From contig JAADYW010000014.1 of assembly GCA_010092845.1 (NCBI GenBank), forward strand, positions 1 through 54,548: a stretch of DNA of 54,548 nt, given 5' to 3'. Made by a program: the position numbers and the translations under genes. This stretch comes from Chloroflexota bacterium (GTDB lineage Bacteria > Chloroflexota > Anaerolineae > Aggregatilineales > J027). This document shows, piece by piece, positions 7,792-15,021 of the stretch (the stretch's first letter is position 1; every line of letters begins with the position of its first letter). The notes under the pieces are model-generated. The model was not told where the DNA came from. It saw only the letters and a list, made by a program, of their open reading frames with translations, and searched no databases.

Positions 7792-9137
7792 TCAAGACAC
7801 TCATGTTTGCTAAGCCGCATCGTGTCGCCTGGCTGACGCTAGTGGCTGCTTTCGTAATCTTCTGTATCGTGGCTGTGGGAATGGTCCAGCTTGTCCAGTA
7901 TGTGTTGTTCGACTGGACAACGAACCTGGAGACGACGGTTCATGTGGCACGTGGCACGCTGGTGGTCCGGAGTGCGGCCGATCCCAACGAGCATGCCGTG
8001 AGCTTGTGGCGGCAGATTGATCCTGGCGATCGTATTCGCACGGATGAGCTGTCGCAGGGGCATCTGACCTTTCGTGACCCGATTAACAGTGAGGTGGTTG
8101 TGGCCACTGTTCAATTGATTGCAGGGAGCGAAGTATCGATCAAGCAGTCGTCACGCCCGCGGTTTCTGGGTGACGGCCCTTTTTCGATTCGGCTGGAGGA
8201 CCTGATTGGCGAGGTTGAGATTACCATCTCTCCGAAGCTGGAGCGAGACGTGCGCGTCGAACTACGGACCAACGACCAGAAGGTACTCCTTAATGAGGCC
8301 GGGCTTTACCGGCTACGCGGCGAAACCGAGTCGCTACGGGTGACGGTGCACCGCGGAAGTGCGCTGTTGATCAACCAGGTGTCTCAGAACAAACTGGTCG
8401 AAGCCGGCGAGACAGGAACCAGTGGACGGTCCGTTGCACCCTACGTTGTCGAAGTAAACACTGCGAACCTGGTGACAAATAGCTATTTTCTGCCTGCGGG
8501 AGATGACCAGCTCCCTACGGGCTGGGGCTGCAGCGATGATCCAGATCCTGTGCTTGATCCTGAAACTGGCAACCCCGTTCCCCAACCTGCGGGCGAGTTC
8601 GCGGCTACGTTTTTCCAGGGCCGGCATACAGTACATATCAAGCGTGATGCCGATCGAACACTGGACCATTCTGAAACGCTCTGTACCCAGATTGTCAATC
8701 ACGATGTGAGCCAGTATGATAGCCTTCGCGTCCGGGCAACGATGTATCTTGAGTCCCACTCGCTGCCGGGCTGTGGCGAGCGCGCATCTGAGTGTGTGAT
8801 GATGTTGCGTGTTCGCTATATTGACCAGCAAGGGGTGCGCCGTACCTGGCTGCATGGCTTCTACGTTCACTATGATGAGAATCTGGGTTGGCCATTGCGG
8901 TGCGATACATGTGATCAGAATCATGAGCATGTGAATCCGGGCACCTGGTTTGTCTTTACTTCCGAGGATCTCATCCAGGATCTGCCGCCAGATCTACAGG
9001 CCAGGCGGCCTGTGGAGATTGTCGATGTTCAGTTCGACGCATCGGGTCACAAATATGAAGCTTATATTGGCGAGCTATCCGTGTTGGCGTCCTCGTCCGC
9101 CGCAGAAGTGGCGTCCAACGACGTCGTAACCGAATGA
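7788..9137 (+). CDS. Single-pass membrane protein with a FecR-like domain and a Cys-rich extracellular beta-sandwich
   Basis: N-terminal TM helix, then GDRIRTD...LRVTVHRGSA...VEAGE (FecR-like). The C-terminal domain begins NLVTNSYF and has several Cys. It overlaps acyP by GTGA. Confidence 0.7.
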   Translation: MIKTLMFAKPHRVAWLTLVAAFVIFCIVAVGMVQLVQYVLFDWTTNLETTVHVARGTLVVRSAADPNEHAVSLWRQIDPGDRIRTDELSQGHLTFRDPINSEVVVATVQLIAGSEVSIKQSSRPRFLGDGPFSIRLEDLIGEVEITISPKLERDVRVELRTNDQKVLLNEAGLYRLRGETESLRVTVHRGSALLINQVSQNKLVEAGETGTSGRSVAPYVVEVNTANLVTNSYFLPAGDDQLPTGWGCSDDPDPVLDPETGNPVPQPAGEFAATFFQGRHTVHIKRDADRTLDHSETLCTQIVNHDVSQYDSLRVRATMYLESHSLPGCGERASECVMMLRVRYIDQQGVRRTWLHGFYVHYDENLGWPLRCDTCDQNHEHVNPGTWFVFTSEDLIQDLPPDLQARRPVEIVDVQFDASGHKYEAYIGELSVLASSSAAEVASNDVVTE

Positions 9138-9784
9138 AAGCCAATGCCTCGTTCCCGAAGCGAGACCCATTCTTCGTTGCCGATGATGATATGGTCCAGC
9201 ACGGCGATATCCATCAGCTTCCCGGCCTCAACCAGATCATGGGTGAGGGCGATATCCTCTGGCGAAGGCGCGGCGGAGCCTGACGGGTGGTTATGCACAA
9301 CGATGATGCCGGCGCTATTGTGTTGGATTGCGCTCCGGAACAACTCCGCGATCCGGACGACGGTGCTGTTCAAGCTGCCGATATAGACGGTATTGACGTC
9401 CACAACATGATTCTGAGTGTCGAGCAGTACTACGATTAGATGCTCTTGCCGCAAGCCGCTGAACTGCCTGCGCACCAGATCGAAAACATCCGACGGACGC
9501 CGAATTACAGTGCGTGGGTGAGTGTGTCTCGACTGAAGGCGCCCAGCCAGCACCAGTAGTGCACTGATCTTGCTGGCGTTCACATCACCAACACCGGGGA
9601 GCCGGCGCAAGTGATCAGTGGTTACATCACCGAGCCCCGCCACGTGGTCCAGGACCGTGCTGGCAACTTGGCTGTCACCGAGTACCAGTGCGAGTAAATC
9701 GACATCGCTCAAAGCGTCAAAACCATTTTCGAAGGCTTCTCGTCGTAGCTCGGGAAGGTCATGCTTCCGGTCAGGTAGCTTCAT
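9062..9784 (-). CDS. radC: RadC family JAB/MPN domain protein
   Basis: ALSDVDLLALVLG, HhH-like PGVG, QEHLIVVLLD and HNHPSG....SPED...LDHIIIG motifs. The start could be at 9817. Confidence 0.92.
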   Translation of the reverse strand: MKLPDRKHDLPELRREAFENGFDALSDVDLLALVLGDSQVASTVLDHVAGLGDVTTDHLRRLPGVGDVNASKISALLVLAGRLQSRHTHPRTVIRRPSDVFDLVRRQFSGLRQEHLIVVLLDTQNHVVDVNTVYIGSLNSTVVRIAELFRSAIQHNSAGIIVVHNHPSGSAAPSPEDIALTHDLVEAGKLMDIAVLDHIIIGNEEWVSLRERGIGFHSVTTSLDATSAADEDANTDSSPI

Positions 9785-9822
9785 CGCTGATAATCCGATA
9801 ATTGCGTTGGTTTCCATGCGCA

Positions 9823-9831
9823 TGCTATACT
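9823..9831 (+). promoter_or_regulatory. Extended -10 promoter for the 9882 gene
   Basis: TG-C-TATACT about 50 nt upstream of an AGGAGA RBS and ATG. Confidence 0.4.
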
Positions 9832-9881
9832 TTCACGATGATAATGCATTTATCGGGAATTTTCAGGAGACCGCAAACCGC

Positions 9882-10469
9882 ATGGATCAGGCAACGCTCA
9901 ACAATATCATTTTGGTTATGGTCACTATTGTGGGGGCGGTTTTCACGGCGTTCTCGGTTGCTTTTGTAATCTGGACGTACAACGACATGAAGGCCCGCTC
10001 GCGGGACCCTCTGGCGCAGATCGCGGCGGCATTGGTGGTGGCTGTCCTCAATGTATTTGGCTTGATTATCTATGTGATGCTGCGCCCCCGCGAAACTCTG
10101 GTCGATGCCTACGAGCGTTCACTTGAAGAAGAAGCGCTTCTGCAAGAGATAGAGGAAAAGCCCGCCTGCCCTGGGTGTGGCAGACCGACCCAGAATGCCT
10201 GGCAAATCTGCCCTTATTGTCACACGCGCCTCAAACAGCCATGTATCAACTGCGGACATTTTTTGGAGCTGTCGTGGAAGCTCTGCCCCGTATGTGCAAC
10301 GGTCCAGGCCTCTGGTGTTGAGCCCAGTGACGAGCCGCTGCGGCAGCTTGGTAAAACCCCTGGCAATCCCCAGCTTAGGCGCTCACCCTATGACACCGGT
10401 ACGGCACCGGCTCAGCAAACCCCTCAGGTGCAGGAAGAGCAACTCGAATGGGTGGACAGCGAATTCTAG
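9882..10469 (+). CDS. Membrane protein with a double zinc ribbon
   Basis: AGGAGA RBS at 9865; two TM segments ending IYVMLRP; four CxxC pairs (CPGC, CPYC, CINC, CPVC). Confidence 0.85.
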   Translation: MDQATLNNIILVMVTIVGAVFTAFSVAFVIWTYNDMKARSRDPLAQIAAALVVAVLNVFGLIIYVMLRPRETLVDAYERSLEEEALLQEIEEKPACPGCGRPTQNAWQICPYCHTRLKQPCINCGHFLELSWKLCPVCATVQASGVEPSDEPLRQLGKTPGNPQLRRSPYDTGTAPAQQTPQVQEEQLEWVDSEF

Positions 10470-10524
10470 GCACTCTCCTGGTCACCCAGTTGTGGCTGCC
10501 GCTTTGCACTCTGGCTAAGTGTTC

Positions 10525-11907
10525 CTAGTGTGGATTCCGCCCTGGTGGGTCTTTGCCCTCCAAGCCCGGCGGATTGTTGTTGCTCTGGCCAAGTGGTCCC
10601 TCGTCAGAGTGCCCAGGGGTATTTCCACTGTTGCCGGGTGCCTCGTCAGATTGCCCTGGTGCATTTCGCCTATTTCCCGGTTCCGCACCCGACTGCCCTG
10701 GTGCATTTCCGCTGTTGCCCGGAGCCTCATCCGACTGCCCTGGCGCGTTCCCGCTGTTACCACGTGGCTCAACAACAATGCTCGAGGGGTCAGTAGGGCG
10801 AATAGATGTGCCTTTCCCGTTGCCAATGACTATGCCTGCGGCAAGGCTTCCAGGACTGAGGTCGTCGAGTTGGCTAAGGATTTCTCCCCACGAGCGGCCC
10901 TCCTGCCGCTCCTCAATAATCTGATCGACCTCAACATTCGCCTGGTCGGCCAAAGCATAGGCGCGACTGATCTCACCAACGCCGAGGCCTTCTGCATGCA
11001 ACGCCTCGAGTACGTCGCAATCAGTGCCATACGCATTCGCGATGATATGGAGAACTGGATGACAGTCGACTTCAGCCGGTACCATAACTTCTGGCCCGGT
11101 AGGTTGCAAGGTGTCCACTGCGATGTCTCCGGAATCAGAGAGCTCGCCGCTAATGGTGATGGTTTTCCCGGTCTCAATGCCGCGTATCTGCTCTGCATCG
11201 ACATAGGCCGTGATTCCATCGATTGTCAGGGTGCCCCCGGTTGCGTCGATCGTTTGGACTGTGCCTGTCAAATCAACGAAAATCGGGACCACCTCTTCTT
11301 CGGGGTCGGGGGTCGGGGTATCACTTGCCGTCGGAGTCGGCGATGGCGGTTGTGGTGTGGCTGACGCCGGCACCCGGGTCTCTGTCGTTGGTACTGGGGT
11401 GTACGTGACCGTCGCTGAAGCTATAGCGGCTGTTGGTGGCTCTGTCTCCGTCGCCGTGCTTGTTGATGTAGCGCTCATGTCCGCTGCGACGCGAGTTTGC
11501 CTGGTGGGGTCTTCGGTGATCTCTACAATTGATACGTCGTCTCCGGACGATCCGGGAGTGCCACCGTCATCATTGGACATGATGGCGAACGTACCACCGG
11601 CGACAATGAGGATCGTAGCTGCCGTTACCAGGATCCACGAGAGCGCATTTTGTGCTGTCTGGAGGATGGGGCTTGCTGTTGACGATCGGAGCCGCTGAAA
11701 AACCTGTTGTTCGATACGTCCTATCTGGCCTGGCTGCACTGCGGGTAAGGGAATGCCCTGAAGCTCATGTGCCATCCACAGCAGCGGCGCCAGTTCATCT
11801 GCATACCCGGGATATTTCGCAAGACATTCCTCCAGAGTAACGCCATGTGCCATCGCATCAGTGCACTCTGCCAGGATTTCTGCCAGGGATTTCTGGTCTC
11901 GGTTCAT
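10525..11907 (-). CDS. Putative membrane anti-sigma factor: N-terminal helical domain, TM helix, Thr/Pro linker, DUF5666-like beta domain, helical 'ISRAYALA' domain, GNSGNAPGQS repeats
   Basis: Overlaps the ECF sigma stop by ATGA. The N-terminus LEECLAKYP...ELAPLL is followed by the TM segment WILVTAATILIVAGGTFAI. Confidence 0.8.
   Translation of the reverse strand: MNRDQKSLAEILAECTDAMAHGVTLEECLAKYPGYADELAPLLWMAHELQGIPLPAVQPGQIGRIEQQVFQRLRSSTASPILQTAQNALSWILVTAATILIVAGGTFAIMSNDDGGTPGSSGDDVSIVEITEDPTRQTRVAADMSATSTSTATETEPPTAAIASATVTYTPVPTTETRVPASATPQPPSPTPTASDTPTPDPEEEVVPIFVDLTGTVQTIDATGGTLTIDGITAYVDAEQIRGIETGKTITISGELSDSGDIAVDTLQPTGPEVMVPAEVDCHPVLHIIANAYGTDCDVLEALHAEGLGVGEISRAYALADQANVEVDQIIEERQEGRSWGEILSQLDDLSPGSLAAGIVIGNGKGTSIRPTDPSSIVVEPRGNSGNAPGQSDEAPGNSGNAPGQSGAEPGNRRNAPGQSDEAPGNSGNTPGHSDEGPLGQSNNNPPGLEGKDPPGRNPH
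10590..10760 (-). repeat. Four imperfect 42-nt (14-aa) tandem repeats inside the anti-sigma tail
   Basis: GNSGNAPGQSDEAP / GNSGNAPGQSGAEP / GNRRNAPGQSDEAP / GNSGNTPGHSDEGP. Confidence 0.85.
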
Positions 11908-12464
11908 TCGTCCGCTCCTTGAGTAGGTTCAAGGTGCTTGGCCAGCGAACGCAATGCCCGCATCTGTAAGGCTTTGACCGCACCGACTTGTTTGCCCATC
12001 AATGCTGCTGTTTCACGAAGATCGTATCCCTGCAGGAATCGCAGCGAAACTACCTGTTGCTGTTCTGGGGTCAGTTTCCGGATATGGTGTAAGAGCTGTT
12101 CGTGGCGGATATTCTTGAATGCTGCTTGTTCCGGGTTATGGTCGGACGCGATAGTCATGTCGTGAATGGATTGAGCGGGCTGGCGGCGCGACTGCTTGCG
12201 ATAATAATCGACAACCAGGCCATGCGCCAGATGGTAGAGCCAGCCCAGGAACGGTATGCCCCGCTGCTCGTAAGCGGCTAGCTTCTCAATTGCACGGACA
12301 AATACGTCGCTGGTCATGTCTTCCGCCAGAGGACTATTGTTTACTCGCGATTGAATGTATCGATAGACGTTGTCAGCATGTTTCCGGTAAAGGGCCGCTA
12401 TGGCATGTTCATCACCCTGTTTAGCAGCCTCGACTAGTCTGGTTTCGTCTTCGTGTGCATTCAT
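11904..12464 (-). CDS. ECF sigma-70 factor, BldN-like
   Basis: Region 2 AEDMTSDVFVRA...FLGWLY; region 4 LTPEQQQVVSLRFLQGYDLRETAALMGKQVGAVKALQMRALRSL. Confidence 0.93.
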   Translation of the reverse strand: MNAHEDETRLVEAAKQGDEHAIAALYRKHADNVYRYIQSRVNNSPLAEDMTSDVFVRAIEKLAAYEQRGIPFLGWLYHLAHGLVVDYYRKQSRRQPAQSIHDMTIASDHNPEQAAFKNIRHEQLLHHIRKLTPEQQQVVSLRFLQGYDLRETAALMGKQVGAVKALQMRALRSLAKHLEPTQGADE

Positions 12465-12516
12465 TAGAGTGGCAATTCTCTTTGGACACTAGATGAATGC
12501 AGTCGGCTTGTATTGA

Positions 12517-12544
12517 ATACCGCTGCTGTAGGCAAAAAGATACG
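12517..12544 (-). promoter_or_regulatory. Putative autoregulatory ECF promoter CGTATC-N16-CGGTAT
   Basis: The minus strand reads CGTATC tttttgcctacagcag CGGTAT, ending about 50 nt before the sigma ATG. A matching copy faces the divergent gene. Confidence 0.65.
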
Positions 12545-12720
12545 AGGCTAACCCCTGTATATTAACACATCGCGAACAATTCTTATCATCTGATGGGGCA
12601 GATTTTACTGGCTTGATGACCTCTGGAACTACGAAGGCACATAATGGTTAGTGATACCCAACAATGTAACCAAGGGCATGCGATGGTTGTTTTTGCATTA
12701 ACAAAACATAACAATGATGC

Positions 12721-12748
12721 CGTAACTAATTCGCTTCTCAAGCGGTAT
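12721..12748 (+). promoter_or_regulatory. Putative ECF promoter CGTAAC-N16-CGGTAT
   Basis: CGTAAC taattcgcttctcaag CGGTAT, ending 60 nt before the ATG at 12809. Confidence 0.7.
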
Positions 12749-12808
12749 GCAGGGTACAGTCACCCAAGAAAGAAAACCGAATGTGATCCACTGGATCAAA
12801 GGAGAGGC

Positions 12809-13909
12809 ATGAAGATGCTAAAGCTTCGTTGGGGACTTCTTATCCCCATATTACTCGCGCTAGCTATCGCGCTCGTTTTGGTTCCATCAACTGGTCTGGC
12901 CCAGGATGGTGGCGAGGATGATGACGAACTCTGGGTCTATATCGAGATAGAAGGCGAAGTCGAGGCGCTCGAAGACGACTTGATCGTCGTTGATGGCTAC
13001 GAATTGGCCCCGGCGGGTGCATTCAATCCATCAACGCTAGAGGTTGGTGATTATGTAGTTGTTGCAGGCTATTTGCTGGATGATGATACCCTCTATGTCG
13101 AGTCCCTGGAAGTAGTTGAGGATTTCGATCAGGACGGCATTCTAGACAATGAAGATAATTGCCCGGAGGTGGCCAATCCTGAGCAGGAGGACACCGATGG
13201 TGACGAGGTCGGCGACGCCTGCGACCCCGACATGGTTGACAGCGACGGCGACGGTGTCGTCGATGCCGAAGAGAACTGCCCCGACGTAGCTAACTCCGAG
13301 CAGGAGGACACCGATGGTGACGAGGTCGGCGACGCCTGCGATCCCGACATGGTTGACAGCGACGGCGACGGTGTCGTCGATGCCGAGGACAATTGCCCCG
13401 ACGTAGCTAACCCCGAGCAGGAGGACACCGATGGCGATGGTGTCGGTGATGTCTGTGACAGCGATGAAGAGGATACCTGCTACTTCGAAAATCACCCGGT
13501 CGCCGAGGCAATTGCAGCCCAGTTTGACGTCAGCTATGAGGAAGTGATGGATCTGCATTGCAGTAGCGAGGGTTTCGGGAACATCAGCCGCGCCTATGCC
13601 CTGGCTGCACAGACCGATGCAACCGTGGAAGAGATCCTGGCATCGTCGAAGGAATCGGGTTGGGGCAACGTCTTGCGCGACTATGACGTGCACCCATCAG
13701 AGCTCGCTCCTGGACTTGCTGTTTCTGAGCGCAACCGCAACCAGCACCAGAACCGCGAGCATACGGGTCCCCCCGAAGACCGCGGTCGGCCTGATAATCC
13801 CGGTAATGGAAATGGTCCACCTGAGGACCGTGGCCGGCCTGACAACCCCGGCAATGGCAATGGCCCACCGGAAGGCCGAGGTCAGGGCAATGGCCGTGGC
13901 AATCGTTAG
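12809..13909 (+). CDS. Secreted acidic protein: DUF5666-like domain, thrombospondin type-3 Ca-binding repeats, helical 'ISRAYALA' domain, [16 protein letters not shown] tail
   Basis: AAAGGAGAGG RBS before ATG 12809; signal peptide ending GLA|QD; [23 protein letters not shown] repeats. Confidence 0.88.
13151..13460 (+). repeat. 117-nt (39-aa) intragenic tandem repeat, about 2.6 copies
   Basis: gagcaggaggacaccgatgg recurs at 13181, 13298 and 13415. The first two copies match at 88 of 89 nt from those positions. Confidence 0.92.
13768..13880 (+). repeat. 48-nt (16-aa) repeat [16 protein letters not shown], about 2.3 copies
   Basis: Visible in the translation; the copies differ at synonymous positions. 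Confidence 0.8.
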
Positions 13910-13940
13910 TTCGGCGTCTTGATTTGATGGAACAGCTTCC

Positions 13941-13970
13941 GCGCAGGTCCGGCACTGACCTGCGCTTTTT
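13941..13970 (+). terminator. Rho-independent terminator
   Basis: Perfect 9-bp stem gcgcaggtc / gacctgcgc, 7-nt loop, then TTTTT. Confidence 0.85.
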
Positions 13971-15021
13971 ACTCACCCACTTCCTCGATTACCAGGCTAT
14001 CACTATCGAAACTTACTACGGCAACGTATTCGACCCGCACGCCGATCTGGTGCTCGATAAGTAGATCGGTAAGTTGTTCACCGTCAATCAGAATGATGGG
14101 GACTGTATTCGGCAGGCGGGCTACGGCCAGAGCACCGCTGGAGAATCCGCTTGTCGTCAGTATCATCCCTTGATCAATATCCTCCATCGCCAGCATGTCG
14201 CCGCGAAATTGACTGACCGTCGGGCGGCCGATGTTCGATTGCATGCGCTTGACCTGGACGGCCGTGTGCACCTGCATCACGCCTACCGCAACATCAGCCA
14301 CAACATCTACCCCGCCATCTGGTCCCCGGCGGGTGACCAGGATGTTGTTGTAACCCATCTTCCCTAGAAGGCGCCCCACAAGATTCTCAAATGCAAAGGG
14401 ATCCATGTGGTTAATGACATTCAGCAGTTGTTGCTGGGCCTTGCCGCGCTGGCGAAGTGCCATCTGTGCGATGGTGTCGATTTCGTGTTCCCACTCTGCC
14501 AGGCTGAATATTCCCGGCCCATCCCGCCGGAAGGCTGAAGCCGAGCCGTGTTGCTGGATATCTCGGTAGAGCTGGGCTGAGAGCGAGGTCTCAGGTGTCA
14601 TGCTTTCGGGGTTGAGGAAGCCCCATTCGATGGCCAGGGCGGCGATGTTAGTGTAGTGCATTGGACGCCCCTCGGTCTTAAGAACCTCATAGGCGGCATC
14701 CCGGTAGGTTAGGTATTCTCCCTGTTGCTGAAAGATGGCATGATCGATGAAGTTGTCGGGTAGGGGATCCGCAGCAGTGCGTAGACGGTAGCGGCCGCGT
14801 TCCACCCGGACAAATGGCGACAGATCGCCAGTTTCTGGCTGACGACGCAGTGACCCGGTGATGACAGCGGACATCGTCTGGCGCGGCGTTTGGCCCATCG
14901 AGTCGATATAGCCGTGTTCAAGGGCCAGGCGGGTGATTTCTGAAACCGACAGAGGCCGCGGGGCCTGGCGTAGCACCTCAACAGCGGCCTGTAGGAACGT
15001 CATTCGTGCAGAATACTCCAT
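13969..15021 (-). CDS. mrr: Mrr-family (type IV-like) restriction endonuclease with two N-terminal HARE-HTH domains
   Basis: FENLVGRLLGKMGY...DGGVDVVA...AVQVKR...TTSGFS..A...LIDGEQL catalytic domain, preceded by two AA.EVL...RP...TP..T/S.SA...F.R...G...L winged helices. Confidence 0.85.
   Translation of the reverse strand: MEYSARMTFLQAAVEVLRQAPRPLSVSEITRLALEHGYIDSMGQTPRQTMSAVITGSLRRQPETGDLSPFVRVERGRYRLRTAADPLPDNFIDHAIFQQQGEYLTYRDAAYEVLKTEGRPMHYTNIAALAIEWGFLNPESMTPETSLSAQLYRDIQQHGSASAFRRDGPGIFSLAEWEHEIDTIAQMALRQRGKAQQQLLNVINHMDPFAFENLVGRLLGKMGYNNILVTRRGPDGGVDVVADVAVGVMQVHTAVQVKRMQSNIGRPTVSQFRGDMLAMEDIDQGMILTTSGFSSGALAVARLPNTVPIILIDGEQLTDLLIEHQIGVRVEYVAVVSFDSDSLVIEEVGE

Follow-up and report, generated by a model that had tools for sequence, protein, structure and literature searches.

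Two sites of the form CGTAWC-N16-CGGTAT lie between an ECF sigma factor gene and a divergent gene for a secreted protein, one facing each gene. From comparison of sequences, we consider it very probable that the BldN-like ECF sigma next to them reads them as -35/-10 promoters, one for its own operon and the other for the divergent secreted protein. Both sites were found in a stretch of 54,548 nt, which we call the window; the features are listed in Table 1.

Table 1. Features around the twin sites in the window, with the second-site elements of relatives in the last row.
Feature	Position	Strand	Remarks
Likely anti-sigma, 460 aa	10525..11907	-	ATG overlaps sigma stop
Helical domain of anti-sigma ectodomain (C..HP....A...G.G.I..A....W)	10804..11085	-	homologous to domain in divergent gene
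ECF sigma, 186 aa, BldN-like, regions 2 and 4 only	11904..12464	-	Pfam PF04542, PF08281/PF04545
-10 box CGGTAT, sigma-side site	12517..12522	-	predicted start ~12510, ShbA-style numbering (-12 to -7)
T5 run directly 3' of minus-strand -35 box	12534..12538	-	T majority at four positions in orthologue sites
-35 box CGTATC, predicted autoregulatory promoter of sigma/anti-sigma operon	12539..12544	-	matrix score 24.4, rank 2 in assembly
-35 box CGTAAC, predicted promoter of divergent secreted-protein gene	12721..12726	+	matrix score 24.9, rank 1 in assembly
-10 box CGGTAT, divergent-gene site	12743..12748	+	predicted start ~12755
Ribosome-binding site AGGAGAGG	12800..12807	+	favours ATG 12809 over ATG 12644 as start
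Predicted target, secreted or surface protein, 366 aa	12809..13909	+	PF02412 match
Helical domain of target	13463..13756	+	five-helix model, pLDDT 84.3
Terminator-like hairpin and T run 3' of target gene	13941..13975	+	
Second-site elements of relatives	L064:3617-3771 (+); L065:6251-6406 (-); L087:264-417 (+); L309:2156-2276 (-); L310:801-979 (+)		genomes G001, G006, G003, G004, G005

The twin sites and the genes around them

The initial annotation had read CGTAAC-N16-CGGTAT on the plus strand (12721-12748) and CGTATC-N16-CGGTAT on the minus strand (12544-12517), and both readings are exact. The two sites have the same spacing, as it had stated, with 16-nt spacers that each contain AGCGGTAT, and they stand 60 nt (ATG 12809) and 52 nt (ATG 12464) before the starts, within the 50-60 nt that had been claimed. 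The remark that the rest of the spacers differ holds in part: the spacers are not unrelated, and the 28-mers are identical at 19/28 positions. Allowing at most one mismatch, the pattern has two matches in the window against 0.29 expected, a number reached in 4/100 shuffles. A twin likeness between two shuffled 150-nt upstream stretches arose in 104/2000 shuffles under a loose criterion, and in 17/5000 under a tighter criterion that was chosen after seeing the sites. Judged from the window alone, the likeness of the twins is suggestive, not decisive; the decisive evidence for the sites is comparative, namely discovery of the motif in orthologues, matrix ranking and held-out loci. The genome scan for CGTAWC-N16-CGGTAT that had been proposed as a check returned exactly two exact matches in the whole assembly (3.86 Mb, 92% complete), both of them the twin sites. 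About one exact match is expected per spacer length in the assembly, and spacers of 15, 17 and 18 nt give 0, 3 and 0. Low-depth contigs from the X1 run cover the plus-strand site only and are without differences there. A housekeeping promoter scan gave four weak sites against 2.4 expected, and Rfam had no match at gathering score in window positions 10000-14200.

Read from ATG 12809, the product of the divergent gene begins with a hydrophobic signal-like stretch (residues 3-33), followed in order by a beta-rich domain, thrombospondin type 3 repeats, a helical domain and a G/N/P-rich tail. A Foldseek search of the PDB with the helical-domain model returned no match at E <= 0.001, and an Atlas search with this domain gave 0.83 at best, to unnamed clusters. 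Convergent with the target gene is a gene for an Mrr-like restriction endonuclease with two HARE-HTH domains (window 13969-15021, minus strand).

The sigma has the small ECF (group IV) architecture and is without an N-terminal (pro-sigma) extension, its open frame having just 194 codons for 186 aa. It scores 166.9 bits against the BldN-family model TIGR02952 (under the cut-off of 206.45) and 101.5 against the ShbA model NF007230 (under the cut-off of 209), and its best PDB match is 6DXO_A (E 7e-31). In quick trees, BldN-named proteins (support 98-99) stand apart from the clade of the window sigma (83-88); an AU test did not reject a grouping of the window's subclade with the BldN-named proteins (p 0.26). 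The sigma has RadC-like, zinc-ribbon, Mrr-like and LepA-like genes in its neighbourhood, with no match to the haem-synthesis context of ECF121, a group described as 100% Actinobacteria (PMC7826278). The sigma is BldN-like and does not appear to be an ECF121/BldN member. A region 4.2 stretch, A[IV]KALQxR, is common to the motif-bearing clade and the BldN-named proteins and differs in a sibling branch; its distribution is in step with the -35 box, and it is not diagnostic, since some further sigma branches have it too. The sigma is patchily distributed (58/301 genomes of the order at E <= 1e-40, an undercount because four more genomes were positive with a closer query). At least five other ECF-like sigmas are encoded in the assembly.

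The 460-aa protein encoded next to the sigma is likely its anti-sigma. An N-terminal region of ~85 aa is followed by a hydrophobic helix (residues ~85-110), an S/T/P linker, a beta-rich domain, a helical domain and a G/N/P-rich tail. With this one hydrophobic helix, the likely anti-sigma would be a single-pass partner at position +1, as in ECF121. Its N-terminal region is kept in 19 loci, and a profile built from these 19 regions had no match in the PDB to RsbN, whose anti-sigma domain is of class III; the orthologues have DUF5667 or DUF5666. The anti-sigma and the divergent-gene product match each other by BLASTP (E 3e-11, 32% over 136 aa) with the helical domain aligned, and the G/N/P-rich tail is also common to both. 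The outer domain is swapped by lineage while the N-terminal region is kept (L063 and L065 versus L066 and L076), with DUF5667 in family f6, where many loci also have a sortase-like gene, as we read the sequence, just upstream. A same-genus orthologue has DUF5666 plus the helical domain. Downstream of the anti-sigma in the window are genes for a RadC-like JAB protein (9062-9823, minus strand) and for a double-zinc-ribbon membrane protein (9735-10469, plus strand).

A conserved motif upstream of orthologous sigma genes

We counted spaced 4-mer pairs blindly upstream of 26 orthologue loci, with the window left out and four near-copies dropped. CGTA-N18-CGGT and CGTA-N19-GGTA, which are one motif, came out on top with 17/26 each (16/25 distinct, L023 and L062 being one locus), and the best pair in 50 shuffles of these upstream stretches reached 5. 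Motif discovery upstream of orthologous sigmas had been suggested as a check, and it returned the word pair seen in the window. At least nine of the 11 motif positions were matched in 24/29 orthologue loci. The orthologues have one non-palindromic copy each, which always points the same way and lies 20-70 nt ahead of the position that aligns with the sigma start. Its two boxes are conserved, and the spacer between them varies in sequence but not in length.

A matrix was built from 21 orthologue sites, leaving out three near-copies and five non-matching loci; the window was not in the training set, the training sites were chosen with a window-derived pattern, and the relatives are not independent. 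Its consensus is cCRTAWC-yTTTT-N10-RCGGTAW, with T at 16-18 of the 21 sites at each of the four positions after the -35 box. The variant -10 box proposed in the initial annotation is supported, and is better written CGGTAW, with the conserved T-run after the -35 box added. Such runs raise the activity of ECF promoters in B. subtilis (PMC5758882). When the matrix was run on the assembly, the twin sites took the first two ranks and the next site scored 18.5, a gap of 6 bits. Further orthologues of family f6 served as a held-out test: 21/21 scored at least 17, nine of them having surfaced before as pattern matches and kin not being independent, whereas a score of 10 was reached by 0/18 other sigmas and 0/78 control stretches. 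The motif is thus conserved before the orthologues, fixed in orientation and absent before ECF paralogues, which agrees with the claim that it is the adjacent sigma's own. No site was found in any of the eight loci of the f8 branch, though this branch is nested in the same sigma clade; at the two f8 loci examined for context, the adjacent anti-sigma is missing. One further locus (L046) has a variant only, with a 17-nt spacer and CGATAT.

Other sigmas have related sites. Upstream of a paralogue in this assembly (C212; G000:C212 3845-4445, L003) lies CGTATC-N16-CGTCAT, and CGTATC-N16-CGTC(A/T)T occurs in 4/8 loci of its branch (C212, L025, L028 and L030; one reads CGTCTT). CGTATC-N16-CGTCAT is probably this paralogue's own autoregulatory promoter. 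A CGTTAT-like -10 box precedes four more distant sigmas. In the branch next to L002, a sigma from this assembly, which is widely conserved, five sigmas (L257, L263, L264, L269 and L271) show CG(T/C)AWC-N16-GGTT(T/A)T by eye, and the L002-containing branch may use this form. In a sibling branch with a C-terminal RHYLRG, the sigma genes are divergent from or adjoin the same secreted-protein family, and twin divergent sites read TGCGAC-N16-CGGTTT in L148 (1143-1500) and L152 and TGTAAC-N16-CGTTTT in L150 (1234-1500). The BldN-type promoter (CGTAAC-N16-CGTTGA) has no exact site in the assembly.

The predicted regulon in this assembly and in relatives

The initial annotation had expected the motif to make the regulon predictable. 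In this assembly it leads to the twin promoters only, and a wider regulon is seen in relatives. A looser scan of the assembly gave 12 intergenic candidates against 13 with the reversed pattern and so, with no excess, no further targets; its filter lost the plus-strand site because that site lies inside the in-frame extension from ATG 12644. Queries with the giant protein and the lipoprotein described below had no tblastn match in this assembly or its family. Additional targets here were ruled out by the 6-bit matrix gap together with the lack of excess in the loose scan and of tblastn matches. The regulon predicted here consists of the sigma/anti-sigma operon and the divergent gene only.

Across 40 sigma-bearing genomes, a stricter pattern gave 100 matches in sum against 59 for the reversed pattern. 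It supersedes an earlier loose scan of 42 genomes, in many of which the reversed control was equally high. We fetched 60 non-sigma sites from the stricter scan; those left out include three of four in G273, one in G169, one in G185, two in G071, three in G283 and near-duplicates in G284, G295 and G227. About a quarter of the 60 fall inside long frames and look like chance. The families that recur downstream of them are (i) giant secreted proteins, (ii) a T/P-rich lipoprotein, (iii) other subtilases, and (iv) a protein of 72-77 aa, and two of the sites (L098, L141) precede genes homologous to the divergent gene of the window. The giant proteins are open frames of 3,300-5,000 aa that occur in 41/301 genomes of the order, among them L307:255-10235 (plus strand) and L308:358-12750 (minus strand). 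Their domains are lectin-like (PF06439/PF13385), subtilase (PF00082) and beta-helix, and they are mostly without Pfam coverage.

A reverse test started from the proteins. For the giant protein we took the best 30 of 54 matches, 12 of which were already known by motif. Among the blind loci of these best 30, a score of at least 12 was found in 11/12 from genomes with the sigma and in 3/6 from genomes first scored as sigma-less; three of those six genomes do have the sigma, and the counts become 13/15 with it and 1/3 without. For the lipoprotein (best 30 of 42 matches, 16-nt matrix), the blind counts were 6/17 with the sigma and 0/9 without, and eight of the misses show CGTAAC-N17-CGGT by eye. 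Controls gave 0/60 for either protein. One genome that is 98% complete (G291) has a strong site before the giant protein (27.2), and another (G260) has a 17-nt variant before the lipoprotein; neither assembly yielded an orthologue of the sigma, and these sites point to assembly gaps or to cross-reading by another BldN-like sigma. In two more genomes (G183 and G286), no sigma orthologue was found and the giant protein is without an upstream site.

The family of the divergent gene has matches in 121/301 genomes. None of its 28 blind homologues has a CGTAWC/CGGTAT-type motif at a score of at least 10, and on these loci we ruled the family out as a general target of the window sigma. A Gibbs search upstream of the family found a sibling motif, TGYRAC-RTT-N13-CGNT, at 11.2 bits against 7.2-7.6 in shuffled sequences; a simple 3-mer pair count gave 7/28, the same as shuffles. 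Since many homologues use the sibling motif, the link between sigma and target appears to be lineage-specific (the window, L098 and L141). A same-genus genome (G012) has the sigma-side site only, and its divergent gene encodes a different protein. This gene (L311:5903-10483, minus strand), which is without a second site, encodes a repeat-rich surface protein of 1,500 aa.

Five genomes of the same family have a second consensus site ~2 kb downstream of the sigma, facing the 3' end of the anti-sigma gene, with no open frame after it. A conserved 120-nt element (z -7.7 and -5.4) follows the site, with one hairpin at its 5' side, a second one that is terminator-like, and the stretch UUCCUCCUCCCUUCC left unpaired. 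The element had no Rfam match. It occurs in 5/19 family genomes (genus g2), all of them sigma-bearing, and is absent from this assembly. We regard it as a candidate sigma-dependent small RNA.

Alternative readings, proposed mechanism and known systems

The resemblance of the twins might have arisen by chance in an AT-rich intergenic region, given that a loose twin match appears in ~5% of shuffles and that the assembly should contain about one exact match for each spacer length. This reading is already contradicted for the sigma-side site, and with the motif recovered independently from orthologues and the twins ranked first and second genome-wide, its probability is negligible. A very improbable reading takes the twins not as promoters but as an operator of a DNA-binding regulator, or as the arms of an inverted repeat spaced by 176 bp: a single non-palindromic copy of fixed orientation and spacer length is what the orthologues have, and two ECF promoters known from experiments have exactly this -35 box and spacer, even though opposite strands and 19/28 identity do make the twins a long-range imperfect inverted repeat.

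A different sigma might also read the sites. They would then be ECF promoters used mainly by another BldN-like sigma, through a cascade or cross-talk, and one of the further ECF-like sigmas of the assembly (at least five) has the same -35 box upstream. The genomes with sites and no orthologous sigma found (G291 and G260) and the f8 orthologue branch without a site fit such a reading, as does BldN, which is reported not to be autoregulated (PMC7826278). The site, however, tracks the clade of the adjacent sigma (21/21 versus 0/18), the paralogue branches have different -10 boxes of their own, and the genomes without an orthologue, G183 and G286, are also without a site before the giant protein. 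We therefore think control by another sigma improbable. We also counted in favour of the adjacent sigma that its region 4.2 helix resembles that of BldN, whose promoter has the same -35 box.

If the adjacent sigma reads both sites, its region 4 would recognise CRTAWC and its region 2 would melt CGGTAW. The -10 box would then separate it from paralogues with the same -35 box, which have CGTCAT (C212), CGTTGA (BldN) or CGATGA (ShbA). By analogy with established ECF biology, the single-pass anti-sigma would tether the sigma to the membrane until a signal from outside releases it, and the freed sigma would amplify itself and turn on surface or secreted proteins. The output would be one protein here; in the largest family of relatives, the 3,300-5,000 aa secreted lectin/subtilase proteins and the T/P-rich lipoprotein would be part of it. 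The signal, at a best guess, reports on the condition of the outer cell surface, given that the outer domain of the anti-sigma resembles the target protein.

A broader picture, which we put forward as speculative and rather unlikely to hold as a whole, is a BldN-like surface-building programme of Anaerolineae, in which sibling ECF sigmas with a common -35 box are told apart by their -10 boxes. CRTAWC-N16-CGGTAW would lead to giant lectin/protease surface proteins and a lipoprotein, with an anti-Shine-Dalgarno small RNA added in one genus. In the lineage of the window, the anti-sigma would have captured a copy of the extracellular domain of its target and so detect a protein under its own control. 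The literature searched held no description of such a self-sensing loop of an ECF anti-sigma.

The transcriptional wiring of Chloroflexota is poorly charted, and the motif offers a testable promoter for an ECF clade, leading to a predicted surface-protein regulon across many Anaerolineae genomes. The series of paralogues, with a common -35 box and the -10 boxes CGGTAW, CGTCAT, CGTTAT and GGTTTT versus CGTTGA and CGATGA, could serve for testing the ECF specificity code and orthogonal switches. A textbook mechanism and a regulon of just two promoters in this assembly limit the significance.

A literature search returned no description of a CGTAWC-N16-CGGTAT-type motif, nor of a Chloroflexota ECF regulon. 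Neither CGGTA nor any Chloroflexota name occurs in eight supplements of PMC7776599, whose two largest datasets may hold the clade. Among the ECF group descriptions compared from PMC7826278, none has the window motif or context. Two Chloroflexi groups are set apart by their descriptions there and do not fit: ECF247 has a two-helix partner and a bactofilin at +2, and ECF271 has a soluble zinc anti-sigma and the motif GCTGCTG/GxTCA. The recognition sequence appears to be a new specificity variant of a known ECF type, in a clade that matches no published group description compared.

The closest known system is that of sigma-BldN and RsbN in Streptomyces (ECF121), sigma-BldN being both the best family match and the best PDB match of the window sigma. 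The BldN promoter is CGTAAC-N16-CGTTGA (PMC2375139), and the -35 box and 16-nt spacer given for it in the initial annotation were correct. Alike in the two systems are the -35 box, the 16-nt spacer, the region 4.2 helix and a single-pass partner, predicted in the window, directly downstream. Unlike sigma-BldN, the window sigma has CGGTAW as its predicted -10 box, is without an N-terminal pro-extension, stays under the TIGR02952 cut-off, belongs to a Chloroflexota host and appears to be autoregulated, and its gene context differs from that described for ECF121 (PMC7826278). BldN drives rsbN and surface-protein genes (PMC6101532), which resembles the output predicted here. The window partner has no sequence match to RsbN, and no chaplin- or rodlin-type target was seen. 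Streptomyces sigma-ShbA reads CGTAAC-N16-CGATGA, whose -10 box spans -12 to -7, and resembles the window sigma in the -35 box, the spacer, the CG start of the -10 box and the autoregulation that is predicted here; its own promoter also has the T-run after the -35 box (PMC12019637). ShbA differs in its -10 box and in driving the principal sigma gene hrdB, and the window sigma scores below the cut-off of the ShbA model NF007230. With canonical modules of an ECF sigma and a membrane anti-sigma (Casas-Pastor classification; Todor specificity code), the system shares its operon layout, a bipartite promoter that is predicted to be autoregulatory, and predicted envelope or secreted targets; it is unlike them in that the ectodomain of the anti-sigma has a domain in common with its own predicted target.
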